A DNA stretch of 64,000 bases from an uncultured Acidobacteriota bacterium (GTDB taxonomy: Bacteria; Acidobacteriota; Thermoanaerobaculia; Multivoradales; UBA5704). The notes under the pieces were generated by a model. The model had not been told where the DNA came from and did not search any database. It saw nothing but the letters and a program-made list of their open reading frames with translations. A program made the translations under genes and the position numbers. Below, one piece after another: positions 19,490 through 23,641 of this stretch (its first letter is position 1; each line of letters begins with the position of its first letter). The stretch lies in assembly GCA_963770895.1 (NCBI GenBank), contig CAVYRF010000002.1:1728001-1792000 (forward strand). Direction: 5' to 3'.

Positions 19490-19515
19490 CAGGGGCGCCC
19501 GCGCGGGCGCCCCTG
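19490..19515. terminator. Perfect 26-bp palindrome between convergent genes
   Basis: CAGGGGCGCCCGC|GCGGGCGCCCCTG, between the stops at 19473 (+) and 19576 (-). Confidence 0.6.
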
Positions 19516-19575: not shown

Positions 19576-20547
19576 TCAGATCCGCTTGAGCTCGGCCAGG
19601 CGGCGATAGTGCTCGCCCAGCGCGGTGAGCTTGCAGGATTTCGATTCGATTGCGGCGTTCCACATATGCGGAGCGTCGACGGGAACGACCAGGTTGACCC
19701 GGTTGTATTTCTGCAGGATCTTGAACTTGGCAACGTTTTGGGGGTCGGGGGGCGGCGCGCCGTCCGGCCGCCCGCGCATCTCGGGCTCGAAGGAGGGATC
19801 GAGCTTGAAGTCGAATCCCACCGACGGGAACAGTGCCGTCATCTGTTGCAGCTCTGCCAGGTCGACCGGCGCCGCCACCTCGCGCAGGGATACAAACCTC
19901 GTGACGTTGGTCTTGAAGACCGGCCGCTGCTGCCAGGGACCGAGGGACTGATCGATATGCGCATACACGCTGCCCGGTGTGACGTCGCCCACCAGGTTGG
20001 CCGCGGCTCCGCGCATGGCGTCCACGAACAGGGCGGTGAAGACGCCGCTGCCGTTCTCTTCACTGGCGTACTGATCCTTGGTCGACGCGGTGAGGATGGT
20101 CATTCCTTCGTTGATCTCTGCCGCCTGCCTGCCGGCCGGAGTTCCTGCTACCCCCGAATGGCAGCTGTCGAGCACGATGATCTTGTTTTGCGATGGCGAG
20201 TCGTTGGCCATCGTCAGCACCTCGCCGAGGGCCAGGCCGTCGTCGCCTCTTTTGCAGTCGCTGGCGCACAGGTAACCACCGGTCGATTCGACGTGGCCGT
20301 GGCCGGCAAAATAGAGCAGCGCAATGTCATGTTTGTCGGCAAACAGCCGAGCGACCTCATCTTTGATGTCTGGCCGCGACAGAGCCGTCTCGCCGCCGGT
20401 GGCGGTCATCAGCTGGACGCCGAAATTCGGCTTGCCGTTGGCATGCCGTTCGAGCACCGCCTGCACGGCATGTGCATCGTTGACGCAGCCGAACAGAGAC
20501 GGCACGTGTTGGTAATAATCGATACCGATCACAAGGGCCTTGCGCAT
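19576..20547 (-). CDS. Caspase-family (peptidase C14) protease with C-terminal extension
   Basis: [25 protein letters not shown] (His), IVLDSCHSG (Cys), [21 protein letters not shown] upstream. Confidence 0.92.
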
Positions 20548-20583
20548 GGAAATCGAATCCCTCCTCAAAAATAGTTGTGATGT

Positions 20584-21924
20584 TCAGCCGGCGCGTGCCG
20601 CAAGGGCGTCTTCCAGGACCTGCGCCCACGCCAGGATCTCGCCGCGGCGCTGCCTGGCTTCGCGGATGATGCGGAGGTTGCGGGCGGTGGTCTGGGCTTC
20701 CCAGGCCGCGCGGACGACGGCCAGGGCGTCGGCCAGCGCCGCACTGGCGCGCGCCTCATCCTTGGCCAGGACGGCGAGCTCAAGCCTGGTCGCGTAGTCC
20801 CAATAGTCGGACTTGCCGGCAGCGATGCGCCGTTCCACGGCGTAGGCGACGACCGGCAGGATCTGCAGGCGCGCGGGATCGGGGGGATCCGCCACCTCCA
20901 TGAGCGTCACGGCGTTCACCCCCGGATAGGCGTCCCGCCAGTCCGCTTCGAAGCCGCGACGGTAGCTGTCGATCGCCCTGGTCAGCAAACCCTTGGCGGT
21001 GAAGACGTCGCCCTTGTCGCGCGCGCGTTCCCAGCGGTCCTTGTAGACGCGGCCGAGGATGCCGCAGGTTTCGCTGCTGGGGCCGCGTTTTGCGATCAGC
21101 GCCACCAGGATCTGCTCCGCCTCCTCGCCGCGGCCCATCCGGTTGAGCGCCAGACCGAGCTGCTCCTGCACCAGCACGGTCTGGGCCAGGGGGCCCGGCA
21201 TCTTGCGCGCCAGAGCCACCATCCGTTCCCAGGCCGAAACCGCGCGATACGAAAGGAAGAGATCGATCACCACGCCGGCCTCGACGTCGGAGAGCGGTCC
21301 CAGGCCGTCCTCGACGGTCGCCACGGCCGCCTCGTCCTTGGACCGGGCGTCGGCCAGGCGCTGCTTCTGCTCCGCCGAGTAGCGCACCTGTTCACGAAAC
21401 ACGTCGGTTCTGTCGTGCGCGATCTGGTTGGGGTAGCCGTCCACCAGCTGGTAGATCGGGCTGTCGGCAGGCGGCTGATCGGCCGCGGCAGCGCGCGCTT
21501 CGCGCAGCCGCTTGACCAGATGCGACCGCGTATCGTCGAGGTCGGCCGGCGTGCCGGCCGGCGTCAGCGGGTAGGGCATCGCGCGCAGCGGCGCCACGTC
21601 GAACGGCAGCCGCCCGCCCTCGGCGAACAGCGCCACGGTGCTCCACGGCCGCACCGCATGGCGCAGCCCAAGCTCGTAGAACACGTTGGCGCTGGCCGTC
21701 GTCAGGTCGGCCACCGCGTACTCGCAAAGGATCAGCCGCTCGAACATCGGCTTGTGGATGATTCCCCCCGCCACCTCCTCGTCGGCGCGCAAGGGCTCGA
21801 GGCCCGCGGCACGGATCGCGGGAGCGATCAGCTCCCGATAGACACCGTCGAAGTCGATCAGCATGCCGCCAGCATCAGTCTTGGCGCCGAACGGCATCAG
21901 CACGAAGCAAAGCGGAGAGGGCAC
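20584..21924 (-). CDS. DUF4071/MAP3K TRAFs-binding-like protein: N-terminal deoxyribohydrolase/TIR-like domain + TPR-S repeats
   Basis: CFVLMPFG..DFDGVY..I.PA..RADEE..G.I..MFERL..ADLTT.SANVFYELGLRHA..LPFD, followed by LSYRA, ALNR, GILGRVYKD, YRRGFE, YPGVNA, DYWDYAT. AGGAGA SD. Confidence 0.85.
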   Translation of the reverse strand: MPSPLCFVLMPFGAKTDAGGMLIDFDGVYRELIAPAIRAAGLEPLRADEEVAGGIIHKPMFERLILCEYAVADLTTASANVFYELGLRHAVRPWSTVALFAEGGRLPFDVAPLRAMPYPLTPAGTPADLDDTRSHLVKRLREARAAAADQPPADSPIYQLVDGYPNQIAHDRTDVFREQVRYSAEQKQRLADARSKDEAAVATVEDGLGPLSDVEAGVVIDLFLSYRAVSAWERMVALARKMPGPLAQTVLVQEQLGLALNRMGRGEEAEQILVALIAKRGPSSETCGILGRVYKDRWERARDKGDVFTAKGLLTRAIDSYRRGFEADWRDAYPGVNAVTLMEVADPPDPARLQILPVVAYAVERRIAAGKSDYWDYATRLELAVLAKDEARASAALADALAVVRAAWEAQTTARNLRIIREARQRRGEILAWAQVLEDALAARAG

Positions 21925-21948
21925 GGTTCAGTCTCCTGGTGAAGGTCG

Positions 21949-21985
21949 ATTGTACTGATTCTACAATGATACTGAACTTTTGAGA
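21949..21985 (-). promoter_or_regulatory. AT-rich promoter region of the TPR-S/caspase operon with an inverted repeat
   Basis: ATTGTA-7 nt-TACAAT (21949-21967). The minus strand carries TAGAAT and TACAAT -10-like hexamers. Confidence 0.4.
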
Positions 21986-22028
21986 CAGCGCGAAACGCGG
22001 CCGCCTGGAGCCGCGGGTGCCGCGGTGA

Positions 22029-23465
22029 TCAGACTTCGAAGAGGATGCCTTCGGTGGCGCCGCGGGCGGAATTGATGACGCCGGTGGAGTCGTGGCGCGG
22101 CATCATGCGGATGAAGCCGCCGCCGTAGGATTCGCCGAAGGCGAAGAGGCCCCAGACCAGGTCGTGGACGGCGGTGCCGTGGTCGCCATATTGATAGAGG
22201 TGCGGCCGGGAGGCGACGTGCTCCTGGGCCAGGTAGCCGGGTTGACCGGCCAGGCGGTCGACGACGGCGCGCCAGGCTTCGGGCGTCATGGCGGGGCCGA
22301 CGAAAACGTCCCTTCCCTGGAAGCCGGCGATCGGTTTGATGACGAAGCTGCAGCGCTCTTCGCGCAGCAGTTGCGAAAGGTTTCGGGTTTCGCCGCGGTA
22401 GGTGACCTGGCTGTCGGCCAGGTCGCGGCACCAGGGCACGTGGGCTTCGATGATCGCTCGCTCCTCGGGCGTGAAACGGTCGCCCGCGGCATGTTGCGAC
22501 AGCAGCGCCAGGTTGCGCTTGTCGTTGAGGATCAGCTCGACAGGGCCGTTGTACAACGTCAGCTGCTCGGCCTTGAAACTGCGGTAGATCGCCTGCGGCC
22601 GGTCTTCGCTGCTCATTTCGATCAGCGCGTGCAGCGGCATCGCGCCGAGGTAGACGATGCCGCCGCGCACCGCCAGCTGGCCGAAGTGGGCGACGATCAG
22701 GTGACCGGCGGCGGCGCCCGCACGCCGGAGCAATGATTCATACATGCCGTTCAGTTCGTCGAAGGAGAGGGCCGCGGCGAGGTCCGGCGAGGTCACCACG
22801 GCGCAGTTGACGGCGCCGTCCGCGCAGTGCGGGCGCGCCACGTTGTCCTCTACGACGTGACGCAGGAGAACCTCCAGCGGGTCGACGTGCACGGGGTGCA
22901 AGCCGCGCTCGGCGATAAAGGAGGCGACCAGCGGATGCTTGCGGCATGCCTCTTCGAAGTAACGCAATTGCCAGCCTCCCAGGCGGCCGGCGTTGACTTC
23001 GATGCACTTGACGCCGGCGACCGAATCGATGAGGTCGCAGCGCGCGACGGCGGTGTCGATGCCGTTGGGCGGCGCCAGCAGCAGGGTCGCCATCAGCTCG
23101 CTGGACAGGCGGTAATACTTGGCGATCCGCACCGGGTCGCCGTCGAAGATGCGTTCGGGGATGCTCTTGAGCAGGCGGGTTACGCCGACCGTGGCGCGGC
23201 GCAGCTCCGCCGACTTGCGGGCGTCGACGAAGGTGGGCCACGACTGCAGGCGGTAGTACTCGCCCGCCTGCACCCGCAGCCAATCGGGATAGCTGGCGGT
23301 GCGATAGTCGATCGGCGCGAGCCCCAGCGGATGGGCGGCGGCGAAGTCGAGGAACTGGCGCGCCGCGGCTGACAGATCCATGGCGCTGGCAAGAGCTTCC
23401 GCCGGCGGCGAAGCCGCGGACGGCCCGGCCGGCGGTTGCTGCGCATTCGAAATCAGCTGGTTCAT
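22029..23465 (-). CDS. Circularly permuted ATP-grasp / glutathionylspermidine-synthase-like ligase
   Basis: ARCDL..KCIEVNAG, NDKRNLALL, FVIKP..G..V..G, YLAQEHV, VINSARG. ATG 23465 with GAGGAG SD. Divergent from the NRPS. Confidence 0.75.
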   Translation of the reverse strand: MNQLISNAQQPPAGPSAASPPAEALASAMDLSAAARQFLDFAAAHPLGLAPIDYRTASYPDWLRVQAGEYYRLQSWPTFVDARKSAELRRATVGVTRLLKSIPERIFDGDPVRIAKYYRLSSELMATLLLAPPNGIDTAVARCDLIDSVAGVKCIEVNAGRLGGWQLRYFEEACRKHPLVASFIAERGLHPVHVDPLEVLLRHVVEDNVARPHCADGAVNCAVVTSPDLAAALSFDELNGMYESLLRRAGAAAGHLIVAHFGQLAVRGGIVYLGAMPLHALIEMSSEDRPQAIYRSFKAEQLTLYNGPVELILNDKRNLALLSQHAAGDRFTPEERAIIEAHVPWCRDLADSQVTYRGETRNLSQLLREERCSFVIKPIAGFQGRDVFVGPAMTPEAWRAVVDRLAGQPGYLAQEHVASRPHLYQYGDHGTAVHDLVWGLFAFGESYGGGFIRMMPRHDSTGVINSARGATEGILFEV

Positions 23466-23641
23466 TTCCTGCTCCTCAACCTTGCGCAAGAAGGATAGCA
23501 GGCGCGCGCCGTTCGCGCCCAGTTGCGTGCAATCTTTTAGAACAATTATGCCGACATTCGCATTCTATGGAATCTAAAGTTAGTGCAGATATTGTGAAGA
23601 TCCAGATTTTGAGATCTTTGCGTCATACTTCCTGGAATCCC

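Follow-up and report, generated by a model that had tools for sequence, protein, structure and literature searches.

A ThsI/BcTpr-type gene and a ThsE-type caspase gene in an operon-like pair without a TIR gene in an uncultured Acidobacteriota bacterium

Introduction

In Thoeris systems of types I, II, IV and V-VIII the alarm molecule is in each case reported to be produced by a TIR enzyme at the core of the system. The present study describes two neighbouring genes, hereafter referred to as gene A and gene B, in a 64,000-nucleotide stretch of DNA from an uncultured Acidobacteriota bacterium (GTDB lineage Thermoanaerobaculia; Multivoradales; UBA5704; assembly GCA_963770895.1, contig CAVYRF010000002.1, positions 1,728,001 to 1,792,000), the whole of which is called the window. 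Gene A is of the ThsI/BcTpr type and gene B of the ThsE type, and the two stand in one TIR-less operon, which is an unusual combination of parts that are themselves known. A preliminary description of the locus, made from the letters of the DNA, had proposed a candidate nucleotide-signalling defence system akin to type IV Thoeris. Each gene was found here to match a part of a named system (ThsE of type IV Thoeris; ThsI of type VIII Thoeris, or BcTpr), which by the terms of that description lessens the novelty. No operon uniting ThsI with ThsE, or a DRHyd-TPR-S protein with a caspase, without a TIR gene was found described in the text of the literature searched, and the supplements of the preprints may hold cases.

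As the leading explanation, which is held tentatively, the products of genes A and B are proposed to be two ligand-gated effectors that act in parallel and are fed by a TIR signal encoded elsewhere in the genome. The proposal is made because of the receiver-like TPR-S region of gene A, the toxicity triggered by cyclic ADP-ribose (cADPR) in type VIII Thoeris, the full conservation of the C-terminal domain in ThsE and the distinct histories of genes A and B; ligand gating, a signal in trans and a defence role of the pair are what we infer.

Family identities of the two genes

Gene A was matched by Pfam to MAP3K_TRAF_bd (PF13281, the former DUF4071; E-value 6.4e-43; 147.6 bits, cut-off 24.1) and to TPR-S (PF20308; 2.1e-24; 86.5 bits, cut-off 27.6), and a sequence search of the PDB matched human ASK1 alone (5ulm at 3.8e-5 and 8qgy at 8.6e-5). 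The AlphaFold2 model of the protein (mean predicted local distance difference test score, pLDDT, 84.8) superposes on the central regulatory region of ASK1 (5ulm) with a Z-score of 22.9 and a root-mean-square deviation (rmsd) of 2.7 over 253 residues at 20% identity, while the next generic TPR protein reaches a Z-score of only 16.1. Foldseek confirmed the ASK1 match and aligned the entire gene A to 8qgy across 471 columns. The ASK1-like TPR-S region named in the preliminary description is thus upheld, by Pfam as well as by structure.

The N-terminal part had been described as a deoxyribosyltransferase/TIR-like domain with a catalytic Glu, and this assignment is probably right. A profile of residues 1-125, built from 33 sequences, gave weak matches to Rcl/DNPH1 (E-values 0.021-0.052) in which the YELG of gene A falls on the YELG of these enzymes, and 11 of the 13 listed profile matches are DNPH1/Rcl or 5-hydroxymethyl-dUMP N-hydrolase. 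Residues 2-169 of the model superpose on the TIR domain of the TIR-STING protein 9lmq (Z-score 12.0, rmsd 2.9, 135 residues). Gene A had no match to the Pfam family PF05014, and for the N-terminal domain taken by itself no Pfam family was returned at E-values up to 10. On the strength of sequence and model, gene A is predicted to consist of a DRHyd/MilB/DNPH1-like N-glycosidase head followed by an ASK1-like TPR-S region.

The motifs CFVLMPF, ADLT and NVFYELG and the Glu codon were located exactly as they had been described. The Glu in question, Glu84, aligns with the YELG of Rcl/DNPH1 and is invariant in both alignments that were made, of 30 and of 33 sequences. Gene A retains 83 of the 84 columns that are invariant among 29 relatives; the sole departure is N78S, at a position that is Asn in the relatives and lies in the active-site loop N-A-N-V-x-Y-E near Glu84. 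The same Ser78 is present in P0001, a 97% identical protein from a second strain. Strongly conserved motifs were also observed in the TPR-S region, namely GFEADWRDAYPG, DYWD and GRVYKDRW, and this region is presumed to be a ligand-receiving module.

In the case of gene B, Pfam recognised Peptidase_C14 (PF00656, 2.6e-18) in residues 1-213, with about 100 residues beyond it that belong to no family. In each of two alignments, of 12 and of 25 sequences, the residues His83 and Cys129 show no variation, which agrees with the earlier view of a caspase with an intact His/Cys pair and an additional C-terminal region. The model (pLDDT 91.5) places residues 1-224 closest to the paracaspase MALT1 (3v4o; Z-score 23.4, rmsd 2.6, 200 residues), followed by metacaspase-4 (Z-score 22.7) and caspase-9 (Z-score 22.1), and Foldseek matched the same residues to MALT1 at 4.1e-14. 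No Pfam family was found for the C-terminal domain at E-values up to 10. From about residue 222 onward R222, P251, E254, F275, L278, P289, M295, A298, A299, C305, T308, G311 and Y314 are invariant, and D250 is so in just one of the two alignments. All 60 columns that are invariant among 24 relatives, those of the C-terminal domain included, are retained in gene B.

By sequence, gene B is assigned to the ThsE-type family of caspase-like proteases, the comparison being with a caspase encoded in a TIR-caspase operon of an Escherichia coli plasmid, with which it shares 61.6% identity. The PADLOC-DB 2.0.0 library, a 2023 release older than Thoeris types IV and VIII, gave domain-level matches only ('Effector TIR' on gene A residues 50-117 at 6e-6; 'caspase' on gene B at 2.5e-18), and no single named system in it matches both genes. 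Assignment of gene B to the EACC1-associated caspases (NCBIfam NF047832) was considered and rejected, the score of 95.3 bits being below the cut-off of 140 and no EACC1-type gene being seen adjacent to it. As a separate observation, residues 205-256 or thereabouts of gene B (19780-19935) matched the phycobilisome linker CpcN (PDB 8imn; whole-sequence E-value 1.8e-5) weakly five times over, each stretch being individually not significant.

For either gene, close relatives number in the thousands, are constant in length and come from many phyla. Relatives at E-values of 0.001 or below numbered 7492 of the 8000 scored candidates for gene A and 7997 of 8000 for gene B, and the best 120 of either set are 66-100% identical. 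The gene-A relatives in the 80 genome loci described below (L001-L080) represent at least 12 phyla, with 50-74% identity and a nearly constant length, a uniformity that is unusual for a conflict gene; one of them, in L023, belongs to a Nitrososphaeraceae archaeon and adjoins a SLATT gene. Rare fusions were seen among the longer relatives of gene A (P0244, P0253-P0255 and P0243), to TIR with leucine-rich repeats, to cyclic-nucleotide-binding domains and to a ParA-like nucleoside triphosphatase (NTPase).

Conservation and history of the pair

The two genes lie head to tail on the same strand, 36 bp apart, as had been described, and are both intact. Their conservation as a pair was examined in the best 80 of 508 confirmed genome loci of gene A, with flanks of up to 6 kb, and in the best 80 of 173 confirmed metagenome loci of gene B. 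A gene-B relative was present in none of the 80 gene-A loci (tblastn, E-value at most 1e-5) and a gene-A relative in none of the 80 gene-B loci (E-value at most 1e-3). Searches at the DNA level of 40 related genomes recovered genes A and B together in none; gene A was found without the caspase in G009 (78% identity), G016 (74%) and G024 (69%), and the caspase without gene A in G007 (about 74-75%). Since G009 and G007 belong to the same genus as the window organism, one congener has gene A alone and another the caspase alone. By the terms of the preliminary description, a pair that is not conserved would speak against it; no conserved pairing was recovered, and the A-B pair is confined to one lineage.

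Within this lineage both genes recur in a single further strain, in which P0001 and P0263 (96% identical to gene B) are each recorded on a contig of the same length, 27,862 bp; the two proteins are intact and their changes are mostly conservative. A 1131-nt contig from a soil metagenome (run X2) is identical to 19609-20739, with zero differences, and spans the A-B junction, although the run may represent the source sample or a sister sample and is weak as independent support for the junction. The flanking genes that relatives share with the window are merely scattered, at about 72% DNA identity, and no insertion site is definable for this reason.

The composition of the two genes differs. Gene B has a G+C (GC) content of 62.8% (79.9% at third codon positions, GC3), against 70.2% (GC3 88.1%) for gene A and 67-70% (GC3 87-90%) for the flanking genes, in keeping with the earlier remark that the caspase gene is less GC-rich than its neighbours. 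Phylogenetic trees were inferred by a quick maximum-likelihood procedure, with supports from the Shimodaira-Hasegawa-like approximate likelihood ratio test (SH-aLRT) only and midpoint rooting for drawing. In the tree of gene A the sister sequence is a Thermoanaerobaculia protein (support 99), and the surrounding clade of eight rows, mostly Acidobacteriota, has zero conflict-type neighbours (support 91). In the tree of gene B the window sequence groups with the G007 copy from the same genus (support 91) in a subclade of five rows (support 90). None of the judged members has a recognisable TIR neighbour, and the subclade is nested among rows with TIR partners. The trees, the difference in GC content and the same-genus genomes with one gene each indicate separate histories of genes A and B. 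To judge from these sequences, a ThsE gene without a TIR partner probably came to lie beside a 'solo' gene A that was already resident.

TIR genes of the genome and neighbourhoods of relatives

No TIR gene was found in the window, either among the open reading frames (ORFs) around the pair or among the genome-wide matches to PF08937 and PF13676, all of which lie outside it. The 8.16-Mb genome holds nine TIR_2 matches above the Pfam cut-off. The corresponding proteins are multi-domain and 314-638 residues long, and include two SIR2-TIR proteins, a TIR-CHAT, a TIR-AAA, a TIR-SEFIR that follows an MNT/HepT pair and a TIR that follows a trypsin gene, besides others. The sole other TPR-S protein of the genome is a TPR-S-trypsin of 929 residues on a different contig. 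It forms part of a second TIR/TPR-S locus (L177, G000:C1:422000-434000), in which an nSTAND1-WD40 protein of 1444 residues, a SIR2-TIR of 638 residues and the TPR-S-trypsin are encoded side by side.

The neighbourhoods of gene-A relatives were examined for immediate co-oriented genes within 350 bp. The gene-A ORF was recognised in 77 of the 80 loci (L053, L066 and L068 being dropped), and the scan returned 35 downstream and 42 upstream neighbours. A conflict-type neighbour was present in 32 of the 77 loci, with a TIR domain in 14 of the 32, and was absent from the other 45. In eight loci (L025, L043, L047, L056, L059, L065, L067 and L070) relatives that are 55-63% identical to gene A adjoin small ThsB-type TIR genes. 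The remaining kinds of neighbour are TPR-S-patatin (eight of the 35 genes on the downstream side), CHAT alone or with TPR-S (four loci), SLATT of the ThsH-like kind (three loci), STAND NTPases (three; L007, L046 and L069), TPR-S-trypsin (two loci), pYEATS (two loci) and an alpha/beta-hydrolase-TPR-S (one locus). The pYEATS genes (L022, 5667-5975; L079, 5028-5375) stand directly 5' of the gene-A relatives, with TIR-containing proteins on the 3' side. TPR-S is therefore a module that is fused to many interchangeable enzymatic heads, often near TIR, which is the pattern expected of a receiver.

For gene B the caspase ORF was placed in 79 of the 80 loci (L115 being dropped), and TIR labels were assigned by Pfam to 68 neighbours and extended through BLAST clusters. 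A TIR-domain gene lies within three ORFs of the caspase in 51 of the 79 loci and directly adjoins it in 49, so that the link to type IV Thoeris made in the preliminary description is stronger than was claimed, gene B itself being a member of the ThsE family. Among the 28 caspase loci without a TIR gene, 19 have less than 900 bp of sequence on one side and nine reach 900 bp or more on both flanks. Most often the partner is a ThsB-type TIR protein of 120-140 residues; larger partners, namely TIR-FGE-sulfatase, TIR-SLOG and SEFIR/TIR-nSTAND1 proteins, were seen in L155 (3524-4567), L157 (6912-7973), L144 (3809-5893) and L134 (915-5132). Homologues of gene B were detected by tblastn in 88 plasmid records, and in the E. 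coli plasmid mentioned above a TIR gene of 125 codons lies 9 bp 5' of the caspase. A TIR and caspase pair on an E. coli chromosome is flanked by a Kiwa gene on one side and by the gene of a Pycsar effector on the other.

A gene of about 92 codons stands directly 3' of the caspase in 14 of the 79 loci (L101, L105, L106, L108, L110, L113, L119, L121, L123, L126, L127, L128, L135 and L139). Five of these genes were scanned and showed weak similarity to the RyR domain (best E-value 7.8e-6, under the cut-off); the gene may belong to some type IV Thoeris operons as their third component. The closest relative of gene B, the G007 caspase (L188, 6073-8662), has no adjacent TIR gene and is followed by membrane proteins of 132 and 388 residues, which matched no Pfam family and had no relatives either in the window or among the other 160 loci. 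By eye only, the C-terminal part of the 388-residue protein shows a strand-Asp and W-E pattern that recalls TIR-like domains. A caspase neighbour of 748 residues in L081 had no match in Atlas.

Locus layout and non-coding elements

The positions of the genes, of their domains and predicted catalytic residues and of the non-coding elements are listed in Table 1.

Table 1. Features of the gene A-gene B locus, in window coordinates
Feature	Position	Strand	Details
Gene A	20584-21924	minus	446 aa, GTG start; from the open reading frame list
Putative flavodoxin-like N-glycosidase domain, gene A residues 1-125	21550-21924	minus	profile and model
Ser78 codon	21691-21693	minus	N78S, active-site loop
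Glu84 codon	21673-21675	minus	NVFYELG, predicted catalytic
Helical linker and TPR-S/MAP3K_TRAF_bd region, gene A residues ~170-446	20587-21417	minus	Pfam, Foldseek, model superposition
A-B spacer	20548-20583	minus	36 nt; GAGGAGG 7 nt ahead of the gene B ATG
Gene B	19576-20547	minus	323 aa, counted from ATG
Caspase-fold domain, gene B residues 1-224	19876-20547	minus	predicted catalytic His83 and Cys129
His83 codon	20299-20301	minus	
Cys129 codon	20161-20163	minus	
C-terminal domain, gene B residues 225-323	19579-19875	minus	no named family
Spacer upstream of gene A	21925-22028	minus	104 nt, 56.7% GC; presumed promoter region
Palindrome	19490-19515	unstranded	13+13 nt, 100% complementary, GC-rich, no loop

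The frame of gene B can be extended to 20568 through a TTG start seven codons upstream of the ATG. No inverted repeat was found in the spacer between the two genes. The preliminary description had given the pair an AT-rich promoter region of its own; the AT-richness of the upstream spacer stands against a GC content of 73.1% for the window as a whole, whereas a promoter scan of 21925-22028 returned no sigma-70-like site, and the promoter role is presumed from composition. An imperfect hairpin (21985-22026) lies within this spacer, on the 3' side of the gene for a protein of 486 residues that precedes gene A. The closing palindrome was recovered as a perfect one; it separates the convergent ends of gene B and of a gene for a PDZ protein and is a possible two-way terminator. 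It was not scored in the scan for intrinsic terminators because no T run stands behind it, and the sole terminator-like site returned by the scan is inside gene B on the opposite strand.

The 486-residue gene (22029-23489, minus strand) gave a weak match to circularly permuted ATP-grasp type 2 (0.023, under the cut-off). It was considered as a third member of the module and rejected, since the hairpin and the AT-rich spacer set gene A apart from it and it does not resemble the ORF that precedes gene A in G009; it probably belongs with the adjoining non-ribosomal peptide synthetase (NRPS). The latter is encoded in a single open frame for 7170 residues (23567-45079, plus strand; about 76% GC) with repeated condensation/adenylation/thiolation-like sequence, and begins 78 bp from the divergent 486-residue gene.

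Discussion

The locus would, according to the explanation favoured here, be a lineage-specific operon that brings together effector genes from two different Thoeris-type systems, with no thsB of its own. The products of genes A and B would be latent, ligand-gated suicide enzymes that abort phage infection in parallel, gene A not being upstream of gene B in signalling. The TPR-S region of gene A would receive TIR-made cADPR and its head would then cleave nucleotides or nicotinamide adenine dinucleotide (NAD+), while the C-terminal domain of gene B would receive N7-cADPR and release broad, arginine-directed proteolysis; the assignment of N7-cADPR binding to this domain follows a hypothesis of the authors of a type IV preprint (bioRxiv 10.1101/2024.10.24.620036). 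At least one of the nine TIR-domain proteins encoded outside the operon, elsewhere in the genome, would supply the activating signal.

Several points weigh against this explanation. The short spacer with its ribosome-binding site and the position of gene A in the slot of thsB suggest functional coupling of the two genes. The surroundings of the pair are housekeeping genes and the giant NRPS, and not a defence island, which the preliminary description had named as a point that would count against its own proposal too. No minimal ThsB is present among the TIR proteins of the genome, and the TIR-less subclade of gene B fits a rewiring to other inputs equally well as signalling in trans. ThsI is reported to answer canonical cADPR and ThsE to answer N7-cADPR (bioRxiv 10.64898/2025.12.03.692087; bioRxiv 10.1101/2024.10.24.620036), and because these ligands differ, one outside TIR protein would not obviously serve both. 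No report was found of a Thoeris TIR that acts in trans on an unlinked effector. Finally, BcTpr, a protein of Bacillus cereus with the architecture of gene A, is itself reported to turn NAD+ into a cADPR isomer, its TPR part being required and its partner BcTir being catalytically dead (Liu et al., bioRxiv 10.1101/2023.05.26.542521).

Among the alternatives, the one that fares best, and which is nevertheless considered unlikely, is that an acquired and already TIR-less ThsE gene came to stand by chance beside an unrelated resident gene A, the two being co-transcribed and unlinked in function, with one or both perhaps orphans. The restriction of the pair to one lineage, the difference in composition and the non-defence context all favour it, as do the nine caspase loci that have ample sequence on both sides and no recognisable TIR gene, the 45 gene-A loci that lack a conflict-type immediate neighbour and the report that core Tpr alone is the commonest arrangement, in 29 of 78 operons (Liu et al., bioRxiv 10.1101/2023.05.26.542521). 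Against mere juxtaposition stand the origin of both genes in TIR-signalling systems, a coincidence that would be unlikely in a region unrelated to defence, the absence of decay seen in the retained invariant columns (60 of 60 in gene B and 83 of 84 in gene A), the survival of both genes in the second strain and the short spacer with a ribosome-binding site.

Somewhat more doubtful is the scheme, close to that of the preliminary description, in which gene A replaces the TIR enzyme: its TPR-S region would sense infection, its N-glycosidase head would make a cADPR-type messenger from NAD+ and the ThsE-type caspase would be switched on by it. Gene A stands upstream of the caspase in the canonical position of thsB, its head is TIR-like in fold and has an invariant Glu, and no recognisable TIR neighbours were seen in the subclade of the window caspase; two strains hold genes A and B intact, and the N78S change in the active-site loop is fixed in both strains and may bear on signal making. 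The report that BcTpr, and not BcTir, makes the isomer is in line with such a role, and Kaur et al. (2020) grouped DRHyd with TIR among the domains that possibly generate messengers. Against it, the pair occurs in one lineage only (in none of the 80 and 80 loci and in none of the 40 related genomes), the GC difference points to separate arrivals and no fusion of gene A with a caspase was found among its 21 longer relatives, a search that is weak evidence. Comparison by hhalign of the N-terminal profile of gene A with those of 13 ThsB partners of ThsE gave a probability of 0.3%, and the idea that the head is a cryptic ThsB was rejected. TPR-S is joined to many effector heads in the manner of a receiver, and in type VIII Thoeris the TIR partner is reported to be the signal maker and ThsI the cADPR-activated effector. 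The activation of ThsE is reported to be specific to N7-cADPR, lysates of 12 other TIR systems being inactive (bioRxiv 10.64898/2025.12.03.692087). The claim for BcTpr is unreviewed, and the 2023 preprint that makes it conflicts with the effector-only view of the later, 2025 preprint. The part of the earlier scheme in which gene A senses and signals to the caspase thus receives support from BcTpr and is opposed by the cADPR-activated ThsI and the receiver-like TPR-S. Its narrowest form, in which the head with N78S converts NAD+ to an N7-cADPR-like molecule that activates the ThsE caspase, giving a Thoeris-type pathway without any TIR domain, is less probable again.

Very improbable, and speculative, is a cascade in which the caspase cuts the linker of gene A and frees its head, or a mutual gating of the two proteins by direct binding: residues 119-178 of the linker hold six Arg and the blocks within 150-180 have pLDDT values of 52-55, ThsE is reported to cleave after arginine with broad specificity (bioRxiv 10.1101/2024.10.24.620036), and the isolated BcTpr head is reported to deplete NAD+ under restraint by the TPR part, with BcTir and BcTpr forming a complex (Liu et al., bioRxiv 10.1101/2023.05.26.542521), whereas the promiscuous ThsE would need no dedicated substrate and the non-conserved pair therefore offers no signal of co-evolution.

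Parallel effectors fed in trans remain the preferred explanation, and it would, if true, mean that bacterial TIR signalling can operate as a genome-wide network and not merely within closed operons. Should gene A instead prove to be a signal maker, a non-TIR N-glycosidase would generate Thoeris messengers, which would be relevant to the origin of the regulatory region of animal ASK1; and if its product were an N7-cADPR-like molecule, the dispute between the preprints over whether ThsI/BcTpr proteins make or receive cADPR isomers would be settled. The weight of the finding is limited by its occurrence in a single lineage and by a defence role that is presumed. In either case the pair offers a small natural test of whether ThsI/BcTpr-type proteins can make Thoeris signals or Thoeris effectors can respond in trans, comprising as it does two genes, three predicted catalytic residues (Glu84, His83 and Cys129) and candidate ligands that are known.

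Comparison with known systems

Conflict systems of TIR and TPR-S proteins were reportedly predicted by Burroughs and Aravind in 2020, with a TPR scaffold that recognises NAD+-derived signals, variable effector heads and a common basis with the animal ASK signalosome. The gene-A loci resemble these systems in their TIR, patatin, trypsin, CHAT, SLATT and pYEATS neighbours; in the predicted systems a TIR signal source is central, whereas none is near the window pair. ASK1 differs from gene A in carrying a kinase domain, and we know of no N-glycosidase activity of ASK1. At the place of the predicted catalytic Glu in the FYELG of gene A, ASK1 reads FYHLG, with His, in an alignment stretch that is not significant (-3.5 bits).

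BcTpr is reported to combine a MilB-like N-glycosidase head (I10, M11, N80-P81-N82 and E86, the last matched to E103 of MilB) with a TPR tail, and the Asn that corresponds to Ser78 of gene A was modelled as a phosphate contact (bioRxiv 10.1101/2023.05.26.542521). Gene A has L9-M10, S78-A79-N80 and E84 at the matching places, E84 being the equivalent of E86, and differs in its length of 446 residues against 415. Protection by BcTpr is reported to need BcTir, and the legend to Figure 5 of the same preprint lists 'Caspase' among the genes that accompany Tpr.

Type VIII Thoeris is reported to consist of a ThsB TIR and of ThsI, a 'CMP hydrolase + TPR' protein, and canonical cADPR, when supplied, was toxic in two such systems; rare two-effector operons are also reported, ThsI occurring occasionally with the SLATT effector ThsH (bioRxiv 10.64898/2025.12.03.692087). 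Gene A shares the two-part architecture, and its relatives adjoin ThsB-type TIR and ThsH-like SLATT genes. It is unlike ThsI in having no adjacent TIR gene and in belonging to a clade whose members lack conflict-type neighbours. Its ThsI/BcTpr architecture is clear in the TPR-S part and, in the head, is indicated by the weak DNPH1/Rcl profile match and the TIR-like fold match; its tie to the tested ThsI proteins is one of architecture and neighbourhood only.

Type IV Thoeris is reported to pair a ThsB TIR with a caspase-like protease, the tested proteins being those of Pseudomonas sp. 1-7 and E. coli 328 and the inactivating mutants PsTIR E79Q and PsCaspase C129A (bioRxiv 10.1101/2024.10.24.620036), and the protease was named ThsE in the later preprint (bioRxiv 10.64898/2025.12.03.692087). 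Gene B is of the same length class, about 320 residues, and has its Cys at position 129, as PsCaspase does, together with the His/Cys dyad and the conserved C-terminal domain. The window operon departs from type IV in lacking ThsB, and its upstream slot is taken by the 446-residue protein with a predicted N-glycosidase head and a TPR-S region.

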